Sequence record: DRR378314_1406
Direction: 5' to 3' (one strand)
DNA length: 64,000 bases
Shown: positions 2,069 through 19,575 of the stretch, piece by piece
Numbering within the stretch: position 1 is the stretch's first letter
Layout: each line of letters starts with the position of its first letter
Made by a program: the position numbers and the translations under genes
Notes under the pieces: generated by a model
Told to the model about the DNA's origin: nothing
What the model saw: the letters and a program-made list of their open reading frames with translations, nothing else
The model's database searches: none

Positions 2069-4156
2069 ATGATTGAAGTTCTTTCCTGCTTGGCGTATGA
2101 GCATAATTATTACTTCGTTGCCTTAGCGGTCCTTGTTTGTGGCGTTGGCGCCACTGTGACCATGCGGCTTTACAGCCGTACCCGCTTCAGCGAAGGCAGT
2201 AAGAAATTTCATTGGATCTTTATTTCCGGCGTTACAGGTGGCAGCACCATCTGGACAACGCATTTTATTGCCATGATCGGCTTTAATCCGCCGCTTTATC
2301 ACGGGTATGAACCCATGATGACAGCGGCTTCGCTATTTCTTTCCGTTGCCGTCTGCATGTTCGGGTTTGCAATCTCATCCTGGACCCGCAAAAGCATCAT
2401 GATCGAAATTGGCGGTGCCATTGTCGGTCTTGGAATTGCGGCCATGCATTATTTGGGAATGCAGGCCTTTTTGGTGGCGGGAAAGATTAATTGGGATCCA
2501 GATCTGGTTGCCTGGTCAATCATTTTGGGAATAGCATTCGGCAGCCTTGCTTTTAATCGGGTTGCCCGGCCGCTCACACGATATTGTAAATTTTTCGGTC
2601 CTATCAGTTTGATTGTTGCCATCGCCACCATGCATTTTACCGGTATGGGCGCGATTCAAATAGTGCCAGATCCAACCATTTTTGTTCCGCAGAGTACATT
2701 TTCTGATAGTACGCTGGCATTTGGTGTCCTGGGATTGATGGCATTGGTTCTGGGATCCGGTTTTTCCATCAATATTCTGGACAATAAAGCCAAAGCGGAA
2801 AATGAAGAATATTTTCACCATTTATCCCATCACGACGCGCTGACAGGACTGCCAAACTACGAATTTCTCCTGCAGACCCACAAATCCAAGCTGATGCTGT
2901 CCGAGGAAAACGGATTGAAGCTGGCCTTGTTGATGATCGAACTGGACGGGCTTTGGGAGATCCGCAATGTGCATGGGCAGGCCGTCAGTGATTCTGTCCT
3001 GAAAATCATGGCCAGCCGGCTGACCGATATTATCGATGACAATTATTATCTGGCCAAAGGTCGCGGCGACAGCCTGCTGGTGGCGATGACCAATGTCAGC
3101 ACCAAAAAACAGGTGATGAGTTTCGTTAATCGCATGGAAGAGGAGTTTAATCGCCCTTATCAAGCGAACGATCGGGAATTTACGGTCGATTTCCGGTGCG
3201 GCGTTGCCTTGCACCCCATGTCGAACCACACCCACCAGGAATTACAGTTCCAGGCGGAGCTGGCGCTTGGTCGGGCCGAGCAGGCCAAAACCCGGAAAAT
3301 CGTTTTCTACGAGCCGGCAATCGATGAAAATAATCGCAGTCGCAGCATTCTCTCTATGGATCTGCGTCATGCTATCGAGCGCAATGAGCTGGAACTTTTC
3401 TATCAGCCGCAAATTGATGTGGCGAGCGGCAATCTGATTGGGTTTGAGGTTCTGCTGCGCTGGCACCACCCTGAACGCGGCATGGTCCCACCGGATCAGT
3501 TTATTCCCATTGCCGAGGAAACCGGCCTGATTGTGCCGATCGGCGAATGGGTGTTGCGCAACGCCTGTGAAGCTGCCAGCAAATGGGCCAATCCTTATAA
3601 GGTTGCGGTCAATGTGGCGACGGCGCAATTGGCTTCCAATGATCTGCCGATCATGATTTTGGATATATTGAGCAAAACCGGACTTGAATCCCGCCGTCTT
3701 GAGCTGGAAATCACAGAAACCAGTATTATTGATGATCATCATCATACGCTGAATATCGTGCGGCAACTGAAACAGATTGGCATTTCCATTGCCATGGATG
3801 ATTTTGGAACCGGCTATTCATCACTGTCCATGCTGCAGACTTTCCCGTTTGACAAGATTAAGATCGACCGGTCTTTCATTAGTGGGGTTTCCGCCAGTGA
3901 GCAATCCTCTGCCATTGCCCGCGCGACAATTGTTCTGGCCCATGGTTTGAACATGAAAGCCCTGGCCGAAGGGGTGGAAGATGAGGATGATCTGGCCTTC
4001 TTACGTCAATATGGCTGTCAAGAAGCGCAAGGATACTATTTTGGAAAACCGGTACCCCTTAGCGAAATTGATCATATCGTCAATGCGGATCTAAAACAGC
4101 CAGTGACTTCTGAGGTCGGGAATGTTTTCCAACTGAGCACCGCAAGCCGCGCCTAA
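2069..4156 (+). CDS. MHYT-GGDEF-EAL c-di-GMP phosphodiesterase (degenerate GGDEF)
   Basis: Membrane N-terminus with THFIAM/MHYLGM/MHFTGM; HDALTGLPN; GGDEF replaced by RGDSL; EVLLRW, DDFGTGYSSL and KIDRSF intact. Confidence 0.9.
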   Translation: MIEVLSCLAYEHNYYFVALAVLVCGVGATVTMRLYSRTRFSEGSKKFHWIFISGVTGGSTIWTTHFIAMIGFNPPLYHGYEPMMTAASLFLSVAVCMFGFAISSWTRKSIMIEIGGAIVGLGIAAMHYLGMQAFLVAGKINWDPDLVAWSIILGIAFGSLAFNRVARPLTRYCKFFGPISLIVAIATMHFTGMGAIQIVPDPTIFVPQSTFSDSTLAFGVLGLMALVLGSGFSINILDNKAKAENEEYFHHLSHHDALTGLPNYEFLLQTHKSKLMLSEENGLKLALLMIELDGLWEIRNVHGQAVSDSVLKIMASRLTDIIDDNYYLAKGRGDSLLVAMTNVSTKKQVMSFVNRMEEEFNRPYQANDREFTVDFRCGVALHPMSNHTHQELQFQAELALGRAEQAKTRKIVFYEPAIDENNRSRSILSMDLRHAIERNELELFYQPQIDVASGNLIGFEVLLRWHHPERGMVPPDQFIPIAEETGLIVPIGEWVLRNACEAASKWANPYKVAVNVATAQLASNDLPIMILDILSKTGLESRRLELEITETSIIDDHHHTLNIVRQLKQIGISIAMDDFGTGYSSLSMLQTFPFDKIKIDRSFISGVSASEQSSAIARATIVLAHGLNMKALAEGVEDEDDLAFLRQYGCQEAQGYYFGKPVPLSEIDHIVNADLKQPVTSEVGNVFQLSTASRA

Positions 4157-4282: not shown

Positions 4283-5068
4283 ATGAGGGTTTTGTATCTC
4301 TCTCACGGTGGTGGCCCGTTGCCACTTTTGCAAGATCCATCTCATCAGGAGATGGTGGACTGCCTTCGCCAAATAGCCGGACAATTGGAAAAACCCAAAG
4401 CCATTCTGCTGGTCAGCGCCCATTGGGAAGAAGCCGTGCCAACGCTTTTGACCGCAACTGCGCCAGAGCTGTTATATGATTATTACGGATTTCCGCCAGA
4501 AAGTTACGAATTAAGTTATCCAGCGGCGGGTAATCCAGCCCTGGCAGCGGACCTGGAGCATGCGCTTGAGGAGAACGGATTTTCTGTCAAAGCAGATCCC
4601 GAGCGGGGCTTTGATCATGGCGTTTTTGTCCCCTTGAAGCTGATGTATCCGGATGCGGATATCCCGGTTCTGCAACTGTCTTTGCTGTCCAATTTGGATC
4701 CCGAGGATCATATTAAAATGGGAGAGGCGATCAGACAGGTCGATCAGGACGGGTTGCTGGTGATCGGATCAGGCTTTTCTTTTCACAATATGCAGGCGTT
4801 CCAATCTGCACCCAGGAGTGACGGGGCAACCATGAACCAGACATTTGAAGCCTGGCTGATGGAAACCTGCCGCAGCGATCAGATCAGCGAGACGGAACGG
4901 ACAAGCCGGTTTGTCAACTGGCAGGATGCGCCCTACGCCCGGTTCTGCCATCCCAGAGAAGAGCATTTATTACCGCTTCATGTCTGTTATGGCGCCGCGG
5001 GCGGAGCGGCACGCCAAGGATACACCCTGCAGATCCTTGGCGTTCAGTCGAGCATGTATCTGTGGTAA
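4283..5068 (+). CDS. DODA/YgiD-type (LigB family) extradiol ring-cleavage dioxygenase
   Basis: SHGGGP, VSAHWE, YDYYGFP, RGFDHG, GSGFSFHN and HPREEHLLPL motifs. Confidence 0.9.
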   Translation: MRVLYLSHGGGPLPLLQDPSHQEMVDCLRQIAGQLEKPKAILLVSAHWEEAVPTLLTATAPELLYDYYGFPPESYELSYPAAGNPALAADLEHALEENGFSVKADPERGFDHGVFVPLKLMYPDADIPVLQLSLLSNLDPEDHIKMGEAIRQVDQDGLLVIGSGFSFHNMQAFQSAPRSDGATMNQTFEAWLMETCRSDQISETERTSRFVNWQDAPYARFCHPREEHLLPLHVCYGAAGGAARQGYTLQILGVQSSMYLW

Positions 5069-5072
5069 GGCG

Positions 5073-5420
5073 TCAGCTCTCCAGAACGCGCTTTTTATAG
5101 GCCGTCCGGTTCATATCCCGCACATCAATGCTGACGCTGCTAACCGTGGGGAGCTTTTCCGTTAATCGCTCTCTTAGAAGGATAGCGAGTTTTTCTTTAA
5201 TCTCGTCCGTGCGGCCATCTAGCAGGAAGATGGTCACATGCAAAAAGCTTTGTCCCGCCTCAGACAGTTTAAAAAAATCATAGGGACGGGCGCGGACCTT
5301 GATGTCCTTGGCATTCATGATGCCGCTATCCAGGCCAGCCTGAAAGGTGACGTCCATGATTTCACTCATGTCCGCCTGTTGTTCAACGTCGCGCGAATAT
5401 TCAAGCACAAAATGGGGCAT
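5073..5420 (-). CDS. 5-carboxymethyl-2-hydroxymuconate isomerase family (tautomerase superfamily)
   Basis: N-terminal MPHFVLEYS (catalytic Pro1), DIKVRA and LLDGRT. Confidence 0.85.
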   Translation of the reverse strand: MPHFVLEYSRDVEQQADMSEIMDVTFQAGLDSGIMNAKDIKVRARPYDFFKLSEAGQSFLHVTIFLLDGRTDEIKEKLAILLRERLTEKLPTVSSVSIDVRDMNRTAYKKRVLES

Positions 5421-5429
5421 TGGGCCTCC

Positions 5430-6893
5430 TTAAAAGAGTGAGAAATACTCCCGTTCCTCCCATTCGGAAACGGTCGTCAGGTATCGGGTCCATTCTGCCT
5501 GTTTTAACGTGGAAAGGTAACTGACAAAATCTTCACCCAGCTGCTGTGCGTAAAAACTGCCATCCCGGAAGGCATTCAAAGCATCGATCAGGCTGGCGGG
5601 TAGAATTTCCGCGTCCGTATCATAGGGGTTTGTCACAGGCGCCGGCGCTTGCAGATTGCGGTTGATCCCGTCCATGCCACTCAGGATCTGAGATGCAAGA
5701 TAAAGATAAGGGTTGGCCGCAGGTTCGCCAATGCGGTTTTCGATCCGGCTGGCCTGATCGCCGGGACGGGCCAGGCAGCGGATCATGGCGCCCCGGTTAT
5801 CGCGGCCCCACTGGATCCGGTCAGGCGCCAGCGTGAACGGCCGATAGCGTTTATAGCCATTGATGGTGGGCGTCGATAAAAGGCAGCTTTCGCGTGCATG
5901 GGCCAGAATACCAGCGATCCAGTTCAGCCCAAGGTCAGAAATATGCGCGCCGTCCGCAGGCATGAATTTATTTTCCCCGGTTTCAAAATCGACCAGCGAT
6001 TGGTGCAGATGCCAGCCACTGGCCATACTGTCGGCAAAGCGCGGCCGGCACATGAAGGTCGCATGCAGGCCATTGCGCTGACAGACCTGTTTCACCATGG
6101 ACCGAAAAGACACCATATTATCGGCTTGTTGCAGGGCCGGGGCCGGGTCGAACGTCACTTCGCACTGGCTGGGGCCAAACTCCACTTCAAGGGATCGAAC
6201 GGGCAGACCCACACCTTCAGCATTGCGCCGGATGAGGTCAAAAATACCTTCCATCTGATCATAGCGATCTTCTGTAAGATATTGATAGCCTTGGGAAATA
6301 AGGCTTGTTTTGGGCGGTGTTCCGGGCTGTCCGGCGTCACTGAGCCCCATGGGGGCATCTTCCATGTTGAAGACATGAAATTCCACTTCCAGACCGGCAA
6401 TGAATTCCAGCCCCATGGCATTCAGACGCGCTTGCGCTTTTTTAAGGATCGCCCGGGTCGAGAGGCGAACCGGTTCGCCTTCAGCCGTGTAAAGATCGGC
6501 CATCAGCCAGCCGGTATGAGGCGACCAGGGCAGGATGCGAAAGGTTGACGGATCGGGCAGCATCAGAACATCACTGGCGCCGGTCATCTGCCCCGCGCCA
6601 AACCCCGCATCATCGGACCAAACCGGAAAAACCGTCCGGTGAGACGTGTCTTTGAGCAACATGGTGGAGGTCATATTGATGCCGCTTTTAAGGGCCGCCT
6701 CCAAGGCGCTGACAACCACGGTTTTGCCGCGCAGGATGCCATGCTGATCAGGGAAAGAGACCCGGATGACCTCCAGCTTCTGATCAATGGCGGTTTTCAG
6801 GATTGTTTCAACGGCGGCGAACTGGCTGTCATCCCACAGGTCATGCTGACCGGCAAAGCCCCAGTTACTTCCAATCGTGGAAGAATTTGTCAT
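5430..6893 (-). CDS. Glutamine synthetase-like gamma-glutamyl ligase
   Basis: DQHGILRGK, GLEVEF, EFGPSQCE, SGWHLHQSL, DNRGAMIR and RIENR motifs; lies inside a catabolic operon. Confidence 0.85.
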   Translation of the reverse strand: MTNSSTIGSNWGFAGQHDLWDDSQFAAVETILKTAIDQKLEVIRVSFPDQHGILRGKTVVVSALEAALKSGINMTSTMLLKDTSHRTVFPVWSDDAGFGAGQMTGASDVLMLPDPSTFRILPWSPHTGWLMADLYTAEGEPVRLSTRAILKKAQARLNAMGLEFIAGLEVEFHVFNMEDAPMGLSDAGQPGTPPKTSLISQGYQYLTEDRYDQMEGIFDLIRRNAEGVGLPVRSLEVEFGPSQCEVTFDPAPALQQADNMVSFRSMVKQVCQRNGLHATFMCRPRFADSMASGWHLHQSLVDFETGENKFMPADGAHISDLGLNWIAGILAHARESCLLSTPTINGYKRYRPFTLAPDRIQWGRDNRGAMIRCLARPGDQASRIENRIGEPAANPYLYLASQILSGMDGINRNLQAPAPVTNPYDTDAEILPASLIDALNAFRDGSFYAQQLGEDFVSYLSTLKQAEWTRYLTTVSEWEEREYFSLF

Positions 6894-6956
6894 TTCTAGC
6901 TGCTCCCTTTCACGGGAAATGGCGGATTAAGTGACCGCCATTTCAACATATATACC

Positions 6957-8279
6957 TTAAATTTCTGCGTCCCAGCTGCAGGCTTTGCGGCGGGCGTCAT
7001 CGCGATCCTTCCAGCATTTCTGCCAATCGTCACTGGGGCCAATGGCATCAACAGCGACCGGACCCTGAATGGTTTTGGCTTTGTCTTCAGACACCTGCAG
7101 GGGAAGGGTACTGCGATCACCGCCTTCGGCCACCACTTTCATGGCTTTGCGCAGTTTGCGGCGATGCTGCATGATGGCTTTATCGGTGGTCCCCAGATGT
7201 TCGTTCGTGCGGTCCTGAATAGTGCCCATGGACTCGCAGGCCCACTGATCATGCACGTTGATATCCAGCCCCATACCCGTCCAGGTCAGGGTTTCCTGCT
7301 CCTCCCGGTTATAGCCGTAATTGTTGCGTTTATTGCGGATCGGCGCGTAATCGGGAAGGGTATGCTCCTGCAGGCGCTGCTCGCTCATTTTTTCCTTATC
7401 CACCGGCTCCCCATAAGAGGTGAACATGGAGAACCAATAGCAATTTTCATCATCCACCGGGACATGCCACTGGGTGATGTTCATCTCATTGGACATGGGG
7501 ATCGTGATGGCACAGGGGAAAACCTGATTGGTCAGCCGGACATGGCTGCTGCCATTTTGCAGATCACGAAGGGCAATGAGGCGCATGCCGTAATCGGTAT
7601 CTTCGACAATGATTTCCGGCTTATCGAATTCCCGCAGCACCTTGGTCATGGGCATATCCGTATCGGCCGCGGTATCACGAAACTGCTTGCCGTAGCTGTC
7701 TTTTGGATCTTCATCCTGCAAAAAGCGATGCAGGAAGGAGGCATGGGCCGGATCAATACCGACTTCCAGGGCCTGCAGCCAGTTGCATTCCCATAGCCCC
7801 TTGAAGGAGAAAACATGGGTATCAGGCGCCCTGAAGCAGTCAAAATCTGGAAATGCGGGTGGCTCCCCGGTGCCCAGATAGGCAAAGATAATGCCGTTGA
7901 CTTCCTTGAGCGGGTAGCTGTTGATCTTGATTTTTTCAAACATGCGGGAGCCTTCAGGCTCACCCGGTTGATCAACGCACTGACCGGTTTCATCAAATTT
8001 CCAGCCATGGAACGGGCAGCGGATACCGCCTTCTTCCTTGCGTCCAAAACACATATCCGCACCCCGATGAGGGCAATGGCGATCCATCAGGACAAGCGTG
8101 TCCAACTCGTTTCGAAAGAGCGCTAGTTTTTCCCCCAGCAGATTAACCGGAACAACCGGGCGATCGCCTTTCAGCTCGTCACTCAAGGCTGCAGGCATCC
8201 AATATTGACGAAGCAATTCACCACCGGCGGTACCCTTGCCAACCTGTGTGAGTTCGTCATTTTTTTCTTGGCTCATCAT
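6957..8279 (-). CDS. Rieske non-heme iron oxygenase, alpha-only type (phthalate 4,5-dioxygenase/LigX-like)
   Basis: CPHRG...CPFHGW Rieske motif; DPAHASFLH mononuclear Fe motif; no beta subunit adjacent. Confidence 0.9.
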   Translation of the reverse strand: MMSQEKNDELTQVGKGTAGGELLRQYWMPAALSDELKGDRPVVPVNLLGEKLALFRNELDTLVLMDRHCPHRGADMCFGRKEEGGIRCPFHGWKFDETGQCVDQPGEPEGSRMFEKIKINSYPLKEVNGIIFAYLGTGEPPAFPDFDCFRAPDTHVFSFKGLWECNWLQALEVGIDPAHASFLHRFLQDEDPKDSYGKQFRDTAADTDMPMTKVLREFDKPEIIVEDTDYGMRLIALRDLQNGSSHVRLTNQVFPCAITIPMSNEMNITQWHVPVDDENCYWFSMFTSYGEPVDKEKMSEQRLQEHTLPDYAPIRNKRNNYGYNREEQETLTWTGMGLDINVHDQWACESMGTIQDRTNEHLGTTDKAIMQHRRKLRKAMKVVAEGGDRSTLPLQVSEDKAKTIQGPVAVDAIGPSDDWQKCWKDRDDARRKACSWDAEI

Positions 8280-8327
8280 GGTTCTGTTCCTCCAGACTCT
8301 CTATGCTTCAGACTTTTTCGTATGAGT

Positions 8328-9575
8328 TCAAACAAAATTTTTCAGTTTTACGGTCAGATCAGCGGCCGCGTCTTTGGGGACGGCGGCGCGCGCGGTCACC
8401 AGTTTTCGGGCGGCGATATGGTCAATGGCGCGGTTGACGCTATCGACCCGTACGAGGCTTTCACCCTGATAATAAAGGAGGGAGAATTTCCCTTCCTGCA
8501 TGTCGCCGCGAATGACAATGTCGTCAAATTCAAGGGCATCCCCAACCATCTGCAACTTGATGTCCATCTGGTCGGACCAGAACCAGGGAGCCACTTGCGC
8601 GGGGATATCCGCACCGGCCAATCGGGCCGCGATAATCTTGGCCTGATCAACCGCGTTCTGAACGCTTTCGTTGCGCGAATAGCGGCTTGCACCCAACAGT
8701 TTCCAGGCGGCACAGTCACCGGCAGCGGAAATATCCGGGTTTGACGTGAGACAGGTTTCATCGACTAATATGCCGTTGTCGCAATCCAGACCGGCAAGCA
8801 GGCCAAGTCCTTCGGCAACCCGGGCGCCAATGCCAACAACCACCAGATCTGCGGTCACGGTATCGCCAGAGGACAAAGTCGCAATTTTCTGGCCGTTATC
8901 CGCTTCGGAAATTCGGTTGATCCGGGTGTTGAACAGGAAATCTGTGCCATTCTGGGCATGCCGGGTGGTCAGAAATTCGGACATGGTACCGGGAAACAGC
9001 CGGGCAAGGACACGATCTTCAGCCTCGACCACGGTTACGGATTTTCCAAGCTTGGCAGCGGTTGCTGCAACTTCCAGCCCAATAAAGCCGGCCCCGGCGA
9101 TGACCACAGATTTGGCCTGATCAAGGGCGGCTTTCAGGTTGTCCGCATCGGCCAGATCGCGAAGTTTCAGGACCCCTTGCAGATCACCGCCAGGGGCAGG
9201 CAAATCAAGAGCGTTGGCGCCTGTTGCCAGGACCAGATGATCATAGGAAATTGCAGCCGGGATCTTTGGATCTGCGGGGGCACCTTCCAGTGGTGTCAGC
9301 GTGATGCTTTTTTCCGCCGTGGCAATATTCGTCGCCCGAACCCCGCTGAGCAGCGTGATATTTTTTTCCGCATAATAGGCCGGGCTTCGAAGGACCAGAC
9401 CGTTTGCATCGGTTTGCCCCGCCAGATAGGCCTTGGACAGGGGCGGCCGCTGATAGGGGGTTGGCAGTTCCCCATGGATCAGGGTGATCGGCTGATCATA
9501 CCCCAGATCGCGAAGGGAGGCCGCAACCTGAACCCCGGCGTGGGAGGCACCCACAATAACGACACCATGGCTCAT
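8328..9575 (-). CDS. FAD-dependent ferredoxin reductase (putidaredoxin reductase-like)
   Basis: VIVGASHAG, YQRPPLSK, GAGFIGLE, AAGDCA and PWFWSDQ motifs. Confidence 0.9.
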   Translation of the reverse strand: MSHGVVIVGASHAGVQVAASLRDLGYDQPITLIHGELPTPYQRPPLSKAYLAGQTDANGLVLRSPAYYAEKNITLLSGVRATNIATAEKSITLTPLEGAPADPKIPAAISYDHLVLATGANALDLPAPGGDLQGVLKLRDLADADNLKAALDQAKSVVIAGAGFIGLEVAATAAKLGKSVTVVEAEDRVLARLFPGTMSEFLTTRHAQNGTDFLFNTRINRISEADNGQKIATLSSGDTVTADLVVVGIGARVAEGLGLLAGLDCDNGILVDETCLTSNPDISAAGDCAAWKLLGASRYSRNESVQNAVDQAKIIAARLAGADIPAQVAPWFWSDQMDIKLQMVGDALEFDDIVIRGDMQEGKFSLLYYQGESLVRVDSVNRAIDHIAARKLVTARAAVPKDAAADLTVKLKNFV

Positions 9576-9907
9576 GATTGGCAGTCCGGAACGTCAAAAA
9601 CCTTGCCGTTCATGGCTTCACTGACAGTGATCTGGCAGCTCAGGCGGCTTGTTGGCCGTCTTTCTGCGGCTGTTTCTTCCAGCATCTCTTCCTCTTCATC
9701 GCCCGCATCACCGGCAAGGGAGAGCAGATCATCAGTCAGGTAAATGTGGCAGGTTGCGCACATGCAACTGCCGCCGCATTCAGCCTCTATGCCATCCACA
9801 TTGTTGAAGATTGCCGCCTGCATGACAGACTGGCCAACAGGTGCGTCAATTTCCTGGATCTCTCCATCGGGCTGACGAAAACCGATTTTAATCGTTGTGT
9901 TGCTCAT
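9572..9907 (-). CDS. [2Fe-2S] ferredoxin, putidaredoxin/adrenodoxin type
   Basis: ECGGSCMCATCH...SRLSCQ; 4-nt overlap with the reductase gene. Confidence 0.92.
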   Translation of the reverse strand: MSNTTIKIGFRQPDGEIQEIDAPVGQSVMQAAIFNNVDGIEAECGGSCMCATCHIYLTDDLLSLAGDAGDEEEEMLEETAAERRPTSRLSCQITVSEAMNGKVFDVPDCQS

Positions 9908-9950
9908 AATATCCTCAGGATCTTGGGGTTAATCACAAGGGTCCAATTTG

Positions 9951-11249
9951 TTAGTGGCCAAACAAGTTCGGCAGGAACAGGGAAATGGCCGGGAACGTGA
10001 CCAGAATTGCCAGGCGAACCACATCCGCCAGAACAAACGGGATCACACCGATCATAGCATCTTTAAGCTCCAATTCCTTTGCGGCACTCTTGACCATATA
10101 TAGGTTCATGCCAACCGGCGGTGAAATAAGGCCGGTTTCCACAGTGACCACGGCGATGATCCCGAACCAGATCGGATCAAAACCGCTGGCCGTAATCAGC
10201 GGAAAGAAGATAGGAACGGTCAGCAGGATCATTGCCAGGCTTTCCAGAAAACAGCCCATCACCACATAAAAGACGATGATGGCGGTCATCACCTGCCAGG
10301 GAGAGAATTGATGCGCGTTGATGAAGTCAACCATCTCAAAGGAGATTTGACTGACGGATAGCAAAAATCCAAAAACCTCAGCGCCGATCAGTATGATGAA
10401 AATGGTTGCTGTAACCGCAACGGTTTCGGTGATGGCTTCTTTGAATTGCTGCAGGGACAGGCCGCGAATGACGGCAAATAAAAGGGCAAGACCGGCCCCG
10501 ACACCACCGGCTTCGGTGGGTGAGAAGATCCCGCCATAAAGCCCGCCCATGACCAACCCAAACAACAGGGCCACAGGGGCAAATTGTTTAAGCGCTTTTT
10601 TAAGCGTGGCACCGGCATCCGGTGCTTGCTCCCCGGTTGGGCGCCATTTCTGGGCCATGATGGCAACAGTGATCAGATAGAGCAGATAGGCCAGCAGACC
10701 GGGCAGGAAACCGGCAAGGAACATATCGCCAACGGATTGTTCAGTGATCAGTGCATATAACAGCAGGGCCACCGACGGCGGGATCATGATCCCCAATGTG
10801 CCGCCCGCCGCGAGGGAGCCTGCGGCAAGACGCGGGTGATATCCCTGACGCATCATTTCCGGATAGGCGACCCGTGTCATGGTCGAAGCGGTTGCCAGTG
10901 AGGAGCCGGAGATGGCAGAGAAGGCGGCGCTTCCGCTCACGGCGGCCAGTGCCAGACTGCCGTTCCAGCCTTTGGTGAAATAGCGGGCAGAATCAAACAG
11001 GTCTTTGGAAAAACCAGCTCGCGCCGCCAGACTTCCCATCAGCAAAAACAGCGGGATCAAGGTGAAGGAATAATTGGATGAGGTTTCGAACGCGGCCGTC
11101 TCCAGCACGTTCAGAGCAGGCTGAATTCCGACAATGCTGGCAAACCCGCCTGCGCCAACAATGATCATGGCCAGACCCACCGGACATCCGAGGGCGAGCA
11201 GAACCAGAATGACCACCAATCCTGCAAGGCCAATTGTTAAGGGATCCAT
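9951..11249 (-). CDS. dctM: TRAP transporter large permease
   Basis: Highly hydrophobic; IPLFLLMG, GGTLGIMIPPS, PTEAG and GLISPPVGMNL motifs. Confidence 0.9.
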   Translation of the reverse strand: MDPLTIGLAGLVVILVLLALGCPVGLAMIIVGAGGFASIVGIQPALNVLETAAFETSSNYSFTLIPLFLLMGSLAARAGFSKDLFDSARYFTKGWNGSLALAAVSGSAAFSAISGSSLATASTMTRVAYPEMMRQGYHPRLAAGSLAAGGTLGIMIPPSVALLLYALITEQSVGDMFLAGFLPGLLAYLLYLITVAIMAQKWRPTGEQAPDAGATLKKALKQFAPVALLFGLVMGGLYGGIFSPTEAGGVGAGLALLFAVIRGLSLQQFKEAITETVAVTATIFIILIGAEVFGFLLSVSQISFEMVDFINAHQFSPWQVMTAIIVFYVVMGCFLESLAMILLTVPIFFPLITASGFDPIWFGIIAVVTVETGLISPPVGMNLYMVKSAAKELELKDAMIGVIPFVLADVVRLAILVTFPAISLFLPNLFGH

Positions 11250-11259
11250 CAGAAACTCC

Positions 11260-11757
11260 TTAGGAGGACAATTCGTCTGACTCTTCAGGTCGGGTCGGGC
11301 GAAGCGCCAACCACAGACCGGTCAGGACGATGGCGAGACTGCAAACCGTCAGTGCGCCATAAAACAGATAAAGCGGGATGCCTAGATCCTGGGTTCTGTC
11401 GCCCCGCTCAAACATGAGCAGGGTTTTTTCCGCGAATAGCCAGCCAACAATGGCGGCAAACACAGCCAGAAGAATATCCCAGGTCCGCTCCAGCAGACGC
11501 CGCAGGAGGTGTGGAAAGGATCCGATGAGAAGGTCCACGCTGACCAGGCTGCTGATCGCTGCACGGGGCAGGGAGGCAAAAACCATGATCAGCAAGGCAT
11601 AGCTGGCAATCTCAATCGCGCCGGGGATGACCAGATTAACGGCCCCCCCGGTCAGATCAAAGAGAACACGTCCAAGGACGCTTTCCACAACCACAAACAG
11701 CATGGTGATCAGAGCGGCATAGGCGATCTTGTCAAAAACAGAGATAAATCGCTCCAT
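11260..11757 (-). CDS. dctQ: TRAP transporter small permease
   Basis: Four hydrophobic segments, 165 aa, located between dctP and dctM. Confidence 0.85.
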   Translation of the reverse strand: MERFISVFDKIAYAALITMLFVVVESVLGRVLFDLTGGAVNLVIPGAIEIASYALLIMVFASLPRAAISSLVSVDLLIGSFPHLLRRLLERTWDILLAVFAAIVGWLFAEKTLLMFERGDRTQDLGIPLYLFYGALTVCSLAIVLTGLWLALRPTRPEESDELSS

Positions 11758-11777
11758 GTCAAGATACTCCAGGTCTA

Positions 11778-12821
11778 TTAAGAGTTCAGTTCACTCTGAC
11801 ATTCAGAGATGTAACCTTTGACTTTACCATAGGTTTCTGTACCCGGCAGACCCATACCGTCAAGCTTGGCCAGATATCCTTTGGTCACCCGATCAGCAGC
11901 TGCTTCCCAGGCTTTACGCTCTTCTTGGGACAGTTTATTGATGGTGCCGCCCTCAGCCTTGATTTTTTCAAGACCAACCTTGTCGGCATCGTCATATCCT
12001 TGACCCGCAACAACAGACCAGTTCATCCCGGAATTGTCATCAATCACTTTTTTCAGATCGTCAGACAGACCGTCATAAGTGTTTTTGTTCATGGTGGTCA
12101 CGAACGCCAGTGAATAAAACCCAAATTCAGTATGCTGTTTGGATACTTCATAAGCGCGGAAGCTGTTGACAGCAGACCAAGGCAGCATATAGCCATCGAT
12201 CACACCGCGTTGAACGGCTGCATAAATGGTCGGTGCAGGAAGACCAATAGGCTCAGCGCCCAGTTCGGTCAGCAAGCCGCCAATAACTTCTGTTGGACGG
12301 CGAATTTTCAGGCCCTTCAGGTCCGCAAGACTGGTAACGGCTTTGTCTTTGGTGTGCAGGTGACCTGGGCTGTGGGTGTGAACATACAAAACCTTCGTTT
12401 CTGCATATTCTTCATCCAATGCGCCGCTGTCATGCAGTTTTGTGAAGGCGCAGGAGCCGACAGCCCCGGTTTTAAACAGCCCCGGAAGTTCCATGATCTG
12501 GCTTAATGGAAAGCGTCCTGCGGTATAACCCTGTACTGTCCAGGCGATATCGGTAATCCCGTGTTTGGCGTTGTCATAGCCAGCCGGAGCTTTACCCAAA
12601 GTCTGTGCAGGATAGACGGTGACGTTGATTTTGCCGGCGGACTGTTCTTCGACAGCCTTCTTCCAGGCGTTAAACATCTTTTCATTTTGCCAACTGCCTT
12701 GTGGCATGAAGTGGGCAAATCTTAAATTGACATCAGCTGCTTGTGCGGAAGCAGCACCTGCAAACAGGCCACCGATGATGGCGAGGGACGACAGATGCTT
12801 GATGGCTTTTTTCATACTCAT
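11778..12821 (-). CDS. dctP: TRAP transporter substrate-binding protein
   Basis: Signal peptide; LRFAHF, YPAQTLG, GRFP and DLKGLKIR motifs. Confidence 0.9.
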   Translation of the reverse strand: MSMKKAIKHLSSLAIIGGLFAGAASAQAADVNLRFAHFMPQGSWQNEKMFNAWKKAVEEQSAGKINVTVYPAQTLGKAPAGYDNAKHGITDIAWTVQGYTAGRFPLSQIMELPGLFKTGAVGSCAFTKLHDSGALDEEYAETKVLYVHTHSPGHLHTKDKAVTSLADLKGLKIRRPTEVIGGLLTELGAEPIGLPAPTIYAAVQRGVIDGYMLPWSAVNSFRAYEVSKQHTEFGFYSLAFVTTMNKNTYDGLSDDLKKVIDDNSGMNWSVVAGQGYDDADKVGLEKIKAEGGTINKLSQEERKAWEAAADRVTKGYLAKLDGMGLPGTETYGKVKGYISECQSELNS

Positions 12822-12853
12822 TACCTCTCTGCTCGAAATCTACTCTTTTTGTC

Positions 12854-12891
12854 TTGATCGATAATCGAACATATGTTTTATAATCGATCAA
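12854..12891. promoter_or_regulatory. PcaR/PcaU/PobR-type IclR operator (two adjacent boxes)
   Basis: TTGATCGATAATCGAACATA followed by TATGTTTTATAATCGATCAA; resembles the PcaU/PcaR consensus TTTGTTCGATAATCGnACAAA; lies between the divergent dctP and IclR genes. Confidence 0.7.
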
Positions 12892-13020
12892 TAACAAATT
12901 TATCGCTCTGGATTTGATCGAAGTCAAGGAACGAATAAAAATTTTGTGGATAATATCCGGCCTTTTTTTCCGATCGGAAAGCGGGTTCGGGCATAAAAAG
13001 AAACAGCATTGGGTGGGGAA

Positions 13021-13788
13021 ATGCCTGAAAAACTTAATGAAAAAGACATATCGCTGACATTTGCCAAAGGGTTGGATGTTTTGCTGGCCTTTGATGCCAA
13101 TGATCGGGAAATGACCATCCCGGCCATTGCCCGCAAAACGAATCTGAACCGGACGGTCACCCGGCGGCTGGTTCTGACCCTGGAGCATCTCAACTATCTG
13201 GAATGCCAGAACCGGGTCTATCGATTGACGCCGCGGATCCTGCGACTGGCGGGCGGATTCCTGCAAGGCAGGGATATCGGCAAGCATGTCACCCCGATCC
13301 TCACCAACTATTCAGCGGAACTGAAAGAAAGTGTCTCCTTTGCCATGATCGATGGGTTGGAGGCGGTATATGTCGCCCATTCCCCCGGTGATCCGACCAT
13401 GATCACGCTGGGGTTCACTGTCGGATCGCGTTTGCCACTGCATGCCACAGCGATCGGACGGACGCTGGTTGCGTTCTCGGCGGCGGGGAAGCGGGAATAT
13501 TTGCTGACGACTGCCCCAAAAGATGCCTATACCGACGTGACCAAAACCGATCTGGAGGCCCTGCGCGAGGATTTGCAGATGACAGTGGCCCGTGGATACG
13601 GGCTTGTGACTGATGAATTTGAGCAGGGTGTGTCCTCGCTTGCGGTGCCCGTGCTGCAGAGCGACGGAGAATTGGTCGGGGCGCTTGGCATCGTCGGTCC
13701 CAATCCGCGTTTTGCCAATGAGGATCAGCAAAAGAAAAGAGTGAGCCTGCTGCGCGAATGCGCTCAATCTATTGCGATGATTGTCTGA
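13021..13788 (+). CDS. IclR-family regulator (PcaR/PobR-like)
   Basis: AKGLDVL HTH, TVTRRLVLTL, VGSRLPLHATAIGR and SLAVPV; divergent from the catabolic operon. Confidence 0.9.
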   Translation: MPEKLNEKDISLTFAKGLDVLLAFDANDREMTIPAIARKTNLNRTVTRRLVLTLEHLNYLECQNRVYRLTPRILRLAGGFLQGRDIGKHVTPILTNYSAELKESVSFAMIDGLEAVYVAHSPGDPTMITLGFTVGSRLPLHATAIGRTLVAFSAAGKREYLLTTAPKDAYTDVTKTDLEALREDLQMTVARGYGLVTDEFEQGVSSLAVPVLQSDGELVGALGIVGPNPRFANEDQQKKRVSLLRECAQSIAMIV

Positions 13789-17414: not shown

Positions 17415-17594
17415 ATGACAAACTTAACCGGGGGGGATCGGGTGCGGGCATAAAATCTGCCCATCGGGCTGGAGGCCAGCCCCGGCAAGCCACCCAGCTA
17501 CACGCCGACGGGGGTTGCTGTTGATGGCAAGGGGGTGATTTATGTATCGGCCGATCGCAATACCGCGATCTACAAGATCAGCCCTCAAAAATAG
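17415..17594 (+). pseudogene. C-terminal remnant of an NHL/SMP-30-like beta-propeller gene
   Basis: Translates as MTNLTGGDRVRA*NLPIGLEASPGKPPSYTPTGVAVDGKGVIYVSADRNTAIYKISPQK* with an in-frame TAA at 17451; PTGVAVD..G.IYVS is an NHL-type blade. Confidence 0.65.
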
Positions 17595-17661
17595 AACGAG
17601 AGGTCTTAAATGATCAAAGCTCGGCTGACCCCCGGGGCTTTGGTTTTAAGGGCGTGGCGGT

Positions 17662-18084
17662 TTAGCTTCGCTTTGTCTCTTTGCCGCTGACAGTGCTGAA
17701 AGTCCCATGTGCGCGGGCGATAAGCTGATCATCTGCCGTGATGGTGCAGTTAGCAAAACAGAGCGTGCGGCCGGTTTTGACCACAAAAGCATCAAACAAA
17801 ATCCATTGACCGATGCGGCCGGTGGACAGAAAATCTGTGTTCAGATTAACGGTGACAAGGCCGGACTGATCCTTGAGCGCCACATGGCACGACAATCCCA
17901 TCACGTTATCAGCCAATGCTGAAACCAGGCCGCCATGAACAAAACCGCGGCTGTTTGTATGGGCTTCATGGACAACAAGGCCCATTTGCACCCGATCTTC
18001 CAGAACTTTTGAATAAAGCGGCTCCCAGGGTTCTGTCAGGGGACTTTTCCGAAAATGGGGTTTAAATCCGGCCGGGATGTTCAT
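17662..18084 (-). CDS. PaaI-family thioesterase (hotdog fold)
   Basis: HTNSRGFVHGG...ALAD and VTVNLNTDFL motifs. Confidence 0.85.
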   Translation of the reverse strand: MNIPAGFKPHFRKSPLTEPWEPLYSKVLEDRVQMGLVVHEAHTNSRGFVHGGLVSALADNVMGLSCHVALKDQSGLVTVNLNTDFLSTGRIGQWILFDAFVVKTGRTLCFANCTITADDQLIARAHGTFSTVSGKETKRS

Positions 18085-18355
18085 GGAGTTGTTCCTTTAG
18101 TCCTGGTTTTGATCTCGGTGAATGCGTTCTCATATATCATGTTCTTTCCTCATGGGGATAGGCGATGCACCGCTTCATGGATTGTGAATTAGGATAATTG
18201 TGTTGATAAAGACGGGATGAAGGGCGCTTGGATCCCTTAAATATTTTTGCCAATACGCTTGTGTTGATGGATTTAAAAAACCGCCTTGCTCGATAAGGGG
18301 AGAGACCTATTTACCAGTGAATTCAAATATATATCAAGATTGTTCTGAGAATATC

Positions 18356-18370
18356 GAACAGAACTAGAAC
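18356..18370. promoter_or_regulatory. LexA box, distal, recA promoter
   Basis: GAACAGAACTAGAAC = GAAC-N7-GAAC. Confidence 0.6.
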
Positions 18371-18411
18371 AAATAAAAATAATACTTTTTACTCAATGAG
18401 TTAAAATCCTC

Positions 18412-18439
18412 TTGCTAAAGAGAACAAAGCATGTACATT
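18412..18439 (+). promoter_or_regulatory. recA promoter with overlapping LexA box
   Basis: TTGCTA(-35)...TACATT(-10); GAACAAAGCATGTAC (18422-18436) = GAAC-N7-GTAC, the form known from rhizobial recA. Confidence 0.8.
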
Positions 18440-18486
18440 AATGTCATTGCATCTGTCGCGCACCTATGAAATAACAGGGGAATACT

Positions 18487-19575
18487 ATGGGACAAACGGC
18501 ATTTAAACTTGTTGAAGCAGGCGGTATGGATAAGAAAAAAGCACTAGAGGCGGCCATGGGCCAGATTGAGCGGGCTTTCGGTAAAGGCTCTGTCATGAAG
18601 CTCGGTCAGCAGGAAGCTCTGGATATTGAGGCCATTTCCACAGGATCTCTCGGGCTGGATATTGCTCTGGGGATTGGTGGCTTGCCCAAAGGGCGGATCA
18701 TTGAAATTTATGGCCCGGAAAGTTCCGGTAAAACCACCCTGGCATTGCAGGTGGTTGCTGAAGCGCAAAAGGCCGGCGGAACCTGTGCCTTTGTGGATGC
18801 AGAACATGCCCTTGATCCCGTTTACGCCCGCAAATTGGGTGTCGATATTAACGAGCTGCTGATTTCGCAGCCGGACACGGGTGAACAGTCCCTGGAAATT
18901 GCCGATACACTGGTTCGCTCCGGCGCGGTGGATGTGTTGGTTGTCGACAGTGTGGCCGCTCTTGTTCCGCAGGCTGAGCTGGAAGGCGAGATGGGGGATA
19001 CCCATGTGGGGCTGCAGGCCCGGCTGATGAGCCAGGCTCTTCGTAAATTGACCGGCTCCATTTCCAGGTCCAATTGCATGGTGATTTTCATCAACCAGAT
19101 TCGGATGAAAATCGGTGTAATGTTTGGCAGTCCGGAAACCACAACCGGCGGCAATGCCCTTAAATTTTATGCCTCAGTGCGCTTGGATATTCGCCGAATT
19201 GGCCAGGTTAAGAACAAGGATGATATTGTTGGTAACCAGACCCGGGTGAAAGTCGTCAAAAACAAGGTTGCCCCGCCCTTCAAGGTGGTAGAGTTTGACA
19301 TCATGTATGGCGAGGGGATCTCCAAGATGGGTGAAATCCTCGATCTGGGGGTGAAAGCCGACATTGTTGAAAAATCCGGTTCCTGGTATTCCTATGACAG
19401 TCAGCGGATTGGACAGGGACGGGAACAGGCCAAGGTATTCCTCAAGGAAAACCCAGAATTAACCGATGAGATTGAACGGAAAATTCGGGCCAATGCCGGA
19501 ATTCTGGAAGAAGTCCTGCAGGGCAATCCGGGAGATCAGGATGGCCTTGTTGAGGATGACACCCTAAAAAGCTGA
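18487..19575 (+). CDS. recA: Recombinase A
   Basis: [23 protein letters not shown] and [17 protein letters not shown] motifs. Confidence 0.99.

Follow-up and report, generated by a model that had tools for sequence, protein, structure and literature searches.

The analysed stretch of DNA (hereafter the window; 64,000 nucleotides of sequence record DRR378314_1406) carries nine adjoining genes, eight of which form an operon on the minus strand (5073–12821), with the ninth, iclR, on the plus strand (Table 1). The operon encodes a tripartite ATP-independent periplasmic (TRAP) transporter, a ferredoxin, a ferredoxin reductase, a Rieske oxygenase, a glutamine synthetase (GS)-like protein, and a CHMI-like protein. 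Open reading frames (ORFs) were taken from the ORF list of the window and assigned with Pfam and NCBIfam profiles. The ORFs of all nine genes matched exactly the coordinates of a preliminary description made from the sequence letters, and its tightly packed minus-strand operon divergent from an IclR gene was confirmed by ORF positions and family matches. From dctP to the CHMI-like gene the intergenic gaps were 20, 10, 43, −4, 48, 63, and 9 bp, and the best protein matches were to Sneathiella limimaris (GS-like protein 88%, Rieske oxygenase 92% identity), Sneathiella being the genus closest to the window. The operon belongs to the glutamylation-dependent arylamine dioxygenase systems of the Sad and aniline types and is ordinary in architecture. 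It probably serves the gamma-glutamylation-dependent catabolism of a para-amino aromatic carboxylate in the Sad manner, with 4-aminobenzoate as the best candidate.

Table 1 Genes and control region of the operon, in window coordinates
Feature	Position	Strand	Family match or remark
IclR-family regulator	13009..13788	+	HTH_IclR + IclR_C
Divergent control region	12822..13008	.	Imperfect palindromic putative operator and conserved TTGAC-type element
DctP, TRAP solute-binding protein, predicted aromatic-acid subfamily	11778..12821	-	PF03480
DctQ, TRAP small membrane subunit	11260..11757	-	PF04290
DctM, TRAP large permease	9951..11249	-	PF06808; TIGR00786 above cut-off
[2Fe-2S] ferredoxin, predicted electron carrier to the oxygenase	9572..9907	-	PF00111
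FAD/NAD(P)H ferredoxin reductase, glutathione-reductase type	8328..9575	-	Pyr_redox_2 + Reductase_C; HcaD/AndAa-like
Alpha-only phthalate-family Rieske oxygenase, SadA-like	6957..8279	-	Rieske + LigXa_C
Predicted GS-like glutamate-arylamine ligase (SadB/AtdA1/NpaA1 family)	5430..6893	-	Gln-synt_C, 275 bits
CHMI-like tautomerase-superfamily protein, 115 residues	5073..5420	-	PF02962; N-terminal Pro (MPH...)

The best solved relative of the GS-like protein was NpaA1 (8wwu, E-value 8e-123), and true glutamine synthetases followed at 7.5e-55 or weaker. Entries 8WWU, 8WWV, and 8X6Z are NpaA1, a 1-naphthylamine:glutamate ligase (PMC11335346; this and all other PMC articles are cited from excerpts of their text). 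The Gln-synt_C match was full-length, and the alignment to NpaA1 covered residues 11–486. This far closer relation to NpaA1 than to glutamine synthetases upheld the earlier assignment to an arylamine system of the gamma-glutamylation type. Identity was 46.5% to the ligase of the Delftia aniline plasmid pLME1, 40.1% to NpaA1, and 52–58% to ligases adjoining alpha-only Rieske genes in plasmid records, and the NCBIfam models for putrescine and methylamine ligases scored far below their cut-offs. A tree of 87 ligase sequences was calculated with a quick IQ-TREE run (LG+G4, Shimodaira–Hasegawa-like approximate likelihood ratio test (SH-aLRT) as sole support), with PuuA of E. coli as an outgroup on a very long branch. 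As the preliminary description had proposed for checking, the ligase was thereby compared with aniline-type ligases and PuuA. The aniline-type ligases nested among the Rieske-linked ones; their clade of 15 sequences (SH-aLRT 100) also included plasmid genes of Novosphingobium resinovorum SA1, Methylobacterium, Polaromonas, and Burkholderia as well as an Anderseniella group, and PuuA was the most distant sequence (end branch 5.12). Judged by these sequences, aniline-type and Rieske-linked ligases are one family; because the root is insecure, the tree is used solely for this statement.

The amine tunnel of NpaA1 is lined by F75, M81, F86, and W235, with V201 in the pocket (PMC11335346). In the printed alignment, F75, M81, F86, W235, and V201 aligned with K, T, W, F, and Y of the window ligase, respectively, and a conserved loop of the latter, LLKDTSHRT, stood where NpaA1 has its hydrophobic tunnel loop. 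The Lys of the KD core was found in 81 of 81 aligned Rieske-linked ligases (SA1, Polaromonas, and Burkholderia among them), and the His and Arg in most of these, whereas NpaA1 and the ligases of pLME1 and Sphingobium YBL2 have hydrophobic loops of the FFFD or FNVD type at the Lys position. A basic tunnel of this kind would fit an amine that bears an anionic group too.

The full-length solved relatives of the oxygenase were isophthalate dioxygenase (IPDO; 9ina, E-value 9e-69) and phthalate dioxygenase (PDO; 7fjl, 5e-59) of Comamonas testosteroni KF1. Both are homomeric, and a beta-subunit gene was absent from the operon, whose oxygenase consists of Rieske and LigXa_C domains. Carbazole dioxygenase and, as weak hits, the demethylases NdmA/B and carnitine oxygenase matched by the Rieske domain only. 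The Rieske Cys/His motif, the iron-ligand His pair, and the carboxylate Arg are common to IPDO, PDO, and the window oxygenase; unlike the former two, the latter is accompanied by separate ferredoxin and reductase genes and a paired ligase gene. In IPDO, R234 binds the C1 carboxylate of isophthalate, H257 binds the meta-carboxylate, and I294 blocks para-substituents (PMC12445078). According to the printed alignment, R234 (R244 in PDO) corresponds to R248 of the window oxygenase, H257 is replaced by Gln (Q270), V178 by Ala, T175 by Pro, and F249 by Met, and I294 falls into a deletion of two residues. R248, Q270, P177, G174, and the iron His pair were invariant in 86 of 86 family members, among which A180 was replaced (by Ser) in SA1 alone. 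In IPDO, a benzoate held by its C1 substituent has C3/C4 next to the iron; an IPDO-like geometry acting on 4-(glutamylamino)benzoate would result in protocatechuate once the nitrogen is lost. The nearest NCBIfam model of the ferredoxin was the ISC type (adrenodoxin/putidaredoxin-like), which scored below its cut-off.

Relatives of the oxygenase were collected from one genome per species, which yielded 579 stretches, and the best 80 loci were kept; counts out of 80 refer to these. Greedy ORF picking produced spurious overlapping ORFs in high-GC loci (clusters 2–4, 6–9, and 12), which were disregarded. The GS-like gene lay directly downstream of the Rieske gene in 76/80 loci, and of the four misses three were contig ends and one (L030) lacked it. 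The adjacency is hence not due to chance, and the oxygenase-ligase pair is the core of the system. A ferredoxin gene was found in 18 and a reductase gene in 17 of the loci. The full nine-gene order was present in seven (L001–L007; Sneathiella, Oceanobacter, Marinomonas, Saccharospirillum, and a metagenome-assembled genome (MAG) of the Methylocystaceae), the ligases of which formed one clade (SH-aLRT 99). As this clade mixes Alpha- and Gammaproteobacteria that share the gene order, the operon appears to have moved between the two classes. Additionally, the G+C content was 0.54–0.56 over the enzyme and dctM genes of the operon (window positions 5001–11000) vs. 0.47–0.53 in the flanks, which, together with the mixed clade, fits horizontal acquisition.

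A gene for an arylamine N-acetyltransferase (PF00797) followed the pair in 7/80 loci, all of them Rhodobacterales (L028, L029, L030, L032, L035, L039, and L051), and in L030 it stood directly after the Rieske gene with no GS-like gene in between; its position beside the pair again points to an arylamine. FAD-dependent aromatic hydroxylases were encoded in 11/80 loci. The transporter varied, with TRAP genes in 14 of the loci (DctP identity of at least 59%) and Liv-type ABC genes in others, and an MFS gene was located near the pair on Methylobacterium and Burkholderia plasmids. In three loci (L032, L051, and L061; Shimia and Pseudopelagicola), a hydrolase gene of the S15/CocE-NonD type was located about 2.7–7.7 kb upstream of the Rieske gene, and the two Shimia loci also had Opp/Dpp-type ABC transporter genes upstream and the arylamine N-acetyltransferase gene after the pair. 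In these Shimia and Pseudopelagicola loci, a conjugate of an arylamine acid may be imported and hydrolysed.

The structure of DctP was modelled with AlphaFold2 on a 120-row alignment of representatives (predicted local distance difference test (pLDDT) 94.7; 35.8 in a single-sequence run). The 11 top structural neighbours of the model superposed with Z-scores of 42.5–47 and root mean square deviations of 1.1–2.1 Å over 313–320 residues at 35–38% identity. Nine of them were complexes with aromatic acids or binders specific for aromatic acids, and the others were the open form of TarP (7nte) and Rfer_2570 (5im2), the ligand of which is not readable from the title. These top neighbours included TarP_Csal (with caffeate, coumarate, or ferulate, or open as in 7nte), TarP_Sse (with coumarate or cinnamate), and four entries of one protein from a marine metagenome, the title of which reads “specific for aromatic acid ligands.” The next tier of matches started at a Z-score of 41.8 and went down to about 35 (TarP_Rhp with 4-hydroxyphenylacetate, 41.4), and binders of sugar acids, dicarboxylates, pyroglutamate, and sialic acid reached about 35 or less. 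DctP thus resembles the TarP-type and marine-metagenome binders (7nrr, 7nsw, 7nr2, 5i5p, 5izz, and 5im2) in fold, and agrees with them in sequence as well as in the conserved carboxylate-binding Arg (Arg174), which was at least 90% conserved in alignment A1. Besides cinnamate and hydroxycinnamates, the TarP-type entries contain other aromatic acids as ligands, and an amino-aromatic ligand is on record in none of them. Because the best structural matches of the model are aromatic-acid binders, the imported compound is very probably an aromatic carboxylate, in line with the earlier view that TRAP import pointed to an organic acid.

The closest described system is the sad operon of Hydrogenophaga sp. 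PBC, the primary description of which is Gan et al. 2012 (Microbiology 158:1933), as cited in PMC5632844 and PMC3704786. According to these two articles, it comprises the Group-I oxygenase SadA, the adjacent GS-like SadB, a ferredoxin, and a reductase, and it converts 4-aminobenzenesulfonate (4-ABS) as a 3,4-dioxygenase to 4-sulfocatechol; both call its natural substrate unknown and consider a compound resembling the xenobiotic probable. An alpha-only Group-I oxygenase, a directly adjacent GS-like gene, and separate ferredoxin and reductase genes occur in both Sad and the window operon, and the conversion of a para-amino aromatic acid to a 3,4-diol with loss of the amine, known for Sad, is proposed for the window operon as well. 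Unlike Sad, the window module probably acts on a carboxylate instead of a sulfonate, its family has a standard pca context instead of sulfocatechol genes, and its chromosomal marine operon links it with a TRAP importer of the aromatic-acid type and a regulator of the IclR family. A second comparison was possible with plasmid pSA3 of the sulfanilate degrader SA1, where the homologues were 59% (Rieske), 53% (GS-like), 44% (reductase), 42% (ferredoxin), and 39% (CHMI-like) identical to the window proteins; the ferredoxin was 46% identical to that of Polaromonas JS666. The pSA3 cluster consists of Rieske, GS-like, and CHMI-like genes as well as reductase, ferredoxin, and glutaminase genes, has a maleylacetate reductase gene as neighbour, and lies between insertion sequences. 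In the same locus (L081), folP (dihydropteroate synthase, which uses p-aminobenzoate) and the glutaminase gene flank the cluster (1–556 and 17590–18501, respectively). The versions of Polaromonas JS666 and Burkholderia RPE67 have an added gene for a type-1 amidotransferase or “peptidase” and a GntR regulator. The combination of components, which the preliminary description had regarded as unusual and possibly undescribed, therefore did not prove so, as Sad and the SA1 cluster have the same components, in SA1 including the CHMI-like gene, and the features concerned are the norm of the family.

The aniline and 1-naphthylamine systems (AtdA1–A5, TdnQTA1A2B, and NpaA1–A5) share with the window operon a homologous GS-like ligase at 40–46% identity. 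In these systems, the amine is glutamylated and then dioxygenated and deaminated to the catechol (PMC4539516, PMC11335346). They have an alpha/beta oxygenase, an FNR-type reductase, and a type-1 amidotransferase (AtdA2/TdnT), none of which is encoded in the window operon. The absence of an AtdA2-like amidotransferase from the operon, as noted before, held for the whole 64-kb window and the 80 loci, where three amidotransferase queries gave no match. The amidotransferase of the aniline system hydrolyses excess adduct (PMC4539516), and since NpaA2 is dispensable for the conversion of 1-naphthylamine (PMC11335346), its absence poses no functional problem.

The product of the pair can be narrowed down from loci in which it is joined to genes of protocatechuate degradation. 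In one of two alphaproteobacterial genomes (G054; locus L096, G054:C12 1281–7829), Rieske, GS-like, pcaH, and pcaG genes, an unassigned stretch, and pcaDC follow one another on one strand, with scores of 342.8 vs. 296.4 (cut-off) for pcaH, 197.4 vs. 126.25 for pcaG, and 479.3 vs. 390 for pcaDC; pcaG was read from positions 4707–5300, which is not a listed ORF, and the ORFs at 175–1284 and 5305–6663 of this locus had no family match. In the other (G402; locus L097, G402:C36 3–4184), the order is pcaC, pcaH, pcaG, pcaB, and Rieske gene, followed by the contig end, and pcaB scored 488.6 against the NF004631 cut-off of 371 and fell short of that of TIGR02426 (338.9 vs. 355.75). Altogether, five of the seven pca assignments in the two genomes exceeded the curated cut-off for the model concerned. 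A gene for the bifunctional PcaDC abutted the Rieske-GS pair in 5/80 loci. For co-occurrence, an even sample of 401 alphaproteobacterial genomes was used, in which genomes with the oxygenase at an E-value of 1e-120 or better were counted as carriers (n = 30). The pcaH gene was found in 20/30 carriers vs. 51/371 non-carriers (Fisher p = 6e-10; the 51 include the unpublished genome G245), and pcaH or LigA in 24/30 vs. 69/371 (p = 8e-12). The pcaHG genes are present in Sneathiella chinensis and in a MAG of Sneathiella, both of which carry the same operon; three other genomes that were checked were without pcaHG but had strong LigB matches. The nearest stand-in for the genome of the window (G048) has the oxygenase at 92% identity together with pcaH. 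Because of the fusion with pca operons, the abutting PcaDC gene, and the co-occurrence of pcaH or LigA, protocatechuate is the likely product.

The CHMI-like protein matched PF02962 with 42.4 bits (cut-off 26.5) and retains Pro-1, and it is outside the HpaF/HpcD equivalog (NF011605, 27.7 bits vs. 215). Its gene directly followed the GS-like gene in 14/80 loci and stands at the same position on pSA3. As the gene accompanies the ligase gene and not genes for ring cleavage, its product might, speculatively, aid a keto-enol step. For the regulator, previously called PcaR-like, the IclR family was confirmed, and the nearest model was indeed that of the PcaR/PcaU/PobR subfamily (TIGR02431); its score of 209.7 bits was below the cut-off of 284.75, and the subfamily assignment was not retained. 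An IclR homologue was divergent from and adjoining the Rieske-GS pair in 43/80 loci. The spacer between dctP and iclR measures 187 bp and contains an inverted repeat (I1, 12847–12898) with two 26-nt arms (12847–12872 and 12873–12898) that are 77% complementary. The core of the palindrome, GTTCGATTATCGATCAA, which we take to be similar to the PcaR box of P. putida, was found at the same place in the relatives L001–L003 and in a degenerate form in L004–L007. A promoter consensus scan gave 1 promoter-like site vs. 6.2 expected, and each terminator-like site found by a terminator consensus scan falls within a gene.

The simplest chain that fits this evidence is import, glutamylation, 3,4-dioxygenation, nitrogen loss, and re-aromatisation. 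DctPQM would import the aromatic acid, and the GS-like ligase would couple the arylamine nitrogen, at the expense of ATP, with the gamma-carboxyl group of glutamate, yielding N-(gamma-glutamyl)-4-aminobenzoate. C3/C4 would then be dihydroxylated by the alpha-only Rieske oxygenase with electrons from the reductase and the ferredoxin. The resulting C4 hemiaminal is expected to collapse, the glutamyl-bound nitrogen leaving probably as glutamine, and the ring would re-aromatise to protocatechuate, a keto-enol step that the Pro-1 tautomerase may speed up. Protocatechuate would be cleaved by a PcaHG encoded elsewhere in the genome, and the IclR protein may control the divergent promoters via the palindromic operator. 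Glutamine is proposed as co-product because of the chemistry of hemiaminal amides, to which the glutaminase gene beside the SA1 cluster would fit. The analysis shows gene content, homology, conserved residues, the structural class of DctP, and genome context; we infer each of the chemical steps, which compound is the substrate, what becomes of the glutamyl group, what the CHMI-like protein does, and how the operon is regulated. Among the conceivable substrates, 4-aminobenzoate is the most likely, with roughly even chances of being the right one; it is naturally abundant, and the para-amino substrate of Sad, the carboxylate-binding Arg, and the pca context speak for it. Of the earlier proposal of an undescribed pathway for an aminobenzoate-like acid, the arylamine-acid type is supported by the ligase, DctP, and pca context, and “undescribed” had to be given up in view of the Sad precedent.

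Several points weigh against this assignment. The position of the amino group rests mainly on the precedent of Sad, since 3-aminobenzoate would also give protocatechuate. Sad was compared by its description, and at the sequence level SA1 pSA3 served as a stand-in for SadA and SadB of strain PBC, the SA1 cluster being taken for the SA1 sulfanilate dioxygenase from the phenotype of the strain. Residues of the ligase and the oxygenase were mapped via printed HMMER alignments at about 40% identity and not via structures of the window proteins. The closest structures of DctP bind hydroxycinnamates and hydroxybenzoates, and none is known for aminobenzoate. Furthermore, the pca genes were seen in relatives of the window's genome and not in that genome itself, six of the 30 carriers showed neither pcaH nor LigA with the queries used, and the cross-tabulation of pcaH was made by hand and is uncorrected for phylogeny, genome size, and completeness. 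Bacteria that degrade aromatic compounds tend to carry many such genes. A literature search retrieved no paper on the “gab” system for 3-aminobenzoate of Comamonas to which the preliminary description referred, and the full-text literature covered, which left out most subscription journals, contained nothing on gamma-glutamyl-4-carboxyanilide, on a glutamylation-dependent route for aminobenzoate, or on the biochemistry of this clade. A gamma-glutamylation-dependent degradation of 4-aminobenzoate has reportedly been found in a Paraburkholderia strain, which, if real, would lower the novelty.

The same mechanism could serve another natural substrate, i.e., 3-aminobenzoate, 4-aminophenylacetate, 4-aminocinnamate, an aminosalicylate, 4-ABS, or an arylamine acid released from a conjugate, for instance p-aminobenzoyl-glutamate, and this is considered the strongest alternative, though rather unlikely. 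The nearest structures of DctP bind cinnamates, hydroxybenzoates, and 4-hydroxyphenylacetate, 3-aminobenzoate would reach protocatechuate by a deaminating 3,4-dioxygenation on chemical grounds, and the S15/CocE-type hydrolase genes of the Shimia and Pseudopelagicola loci, in Shimia together with the Opp-type ABC genes, hint at the import of a conjugate. However, the fusion with pcaHG, pcaB, and pcaDC demands a product with a C1 carboxylate and a 3,4-diol, so that the products of phenylacetate, cinnamate, sulfonate, and salicylate substrates are excluded unless further steps follow, and the carboxylate-binding Arg is invariant. The sulfonate 4-ABS is the substrate of the sole activity reported for the family (PMC5632844, PMC3704786) but is termed a xenobiotic (PMC3704786), and yet the pair occurred in 30 of the 401 sampled Alphaproteobacteria.

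Two further readings change the chemistry itself and were given far less weight. It is improbable that the free arylamine acid is hydroxylated before the GS-like protein removes or transfers its amino group. Such an order was hypothesised for SadB, which was suggested from deletion and transposon data to remove the amine from hydroxylated 4-ABS (PMC3704786); in the homologous aniline and naphthylamine systems, by contrast, the ligase reaction comes before that of the dioxygenase, which reportedly does not attack the free amines directly (PMC4539516, PMC11335346), and the window protein has a full-length Gln-synt_C match and aligns with NpaA1 over residues 11–486. Slightly less probable still is a non-aromatic pathway, with gamma-glutamylation of an aliphatic amino acid or a polyamine and an N-dealkylase-like hydroxylation, by the Rieske enzyme, of the carbon beside the nitrogen. 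Putrescine, methylamine, and isopropylamine are indeed known as substrates of GS-like ligases (PMC11335346), and phthalate-family Rieske enzymes include N-demethylases, but PuuA was farthest in the ligase tree, the putrescine and methylamine ligase models scored far below their cut-offs, and the demethylases matched the oxygenase by one domain where the isophthalate and phthalate dioxygenases matched over the full length. The aromatic-acid type of DctP and the neighbouring genes of the family (pca genes, arylamine acetyltransferase, and aromatic hydroxylases) likewise speak for an aromatic substrate.

Beyond the operon, a LigB-family gene of the YgiD/4,5-DOPA extradiol dioxygenase type (4283–5068, plus strand; NF007914, 135.5 bits, below the cut-off of 233) converges with the CHMI-like gene and ends 4 bp from it. 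It was considered as a member of the pathway and dropped, as a LigB-like gene was found within 10 kb of the pair in just 1/80 loci (L003); it is therefore probably outside the pathway. Just upstream of it lies a gene for an MHYT-GGDEF-EAL signalling protein (2069–4156, plus strand), and recA (18487–19575, plus strand) is located 5 kb past the iclR gene; given these two neighbours, the region is regarded as chromosomal.

For the Sad-type reading with 4-aminobenzoate as substrate, we tentatively extend the argument to the family, with somewhat less confidence than we place in the substrate. The operon may represent the natural, ancestral function of the Sad type, namely a widespread catabolism of p-aminobenzoate, the folate precursor, in about 7% of the sampled Alphaproteobacteria and in marine Gammaproteobacteria, in which two enzymatic steps would turn the ring into protocatechuate and the nitrogen into glutamine. 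The aniline and sulfanilate degraders would then be recent offshoots, and the CHMI-like protein would be a new tautomerase that re-aromatises a dienone to the catechol. The difference in the amine tunnel (Lys/His/Arg vs. Phe) provides a testable rule for distinguishing acid-specific ligases from those for neutral arylamines. If p-aminobenzoate is the substrate, a natural role would be named for a family known only from the degradation of the xenobiotic sulfanilate, the gene pair would serve as a genetic marker of vitamin-precursor turnover among marine and soil bacteria, and the tagging of arylamines with glutamate would be an old and common route instead of a recent response to industrial anilines.

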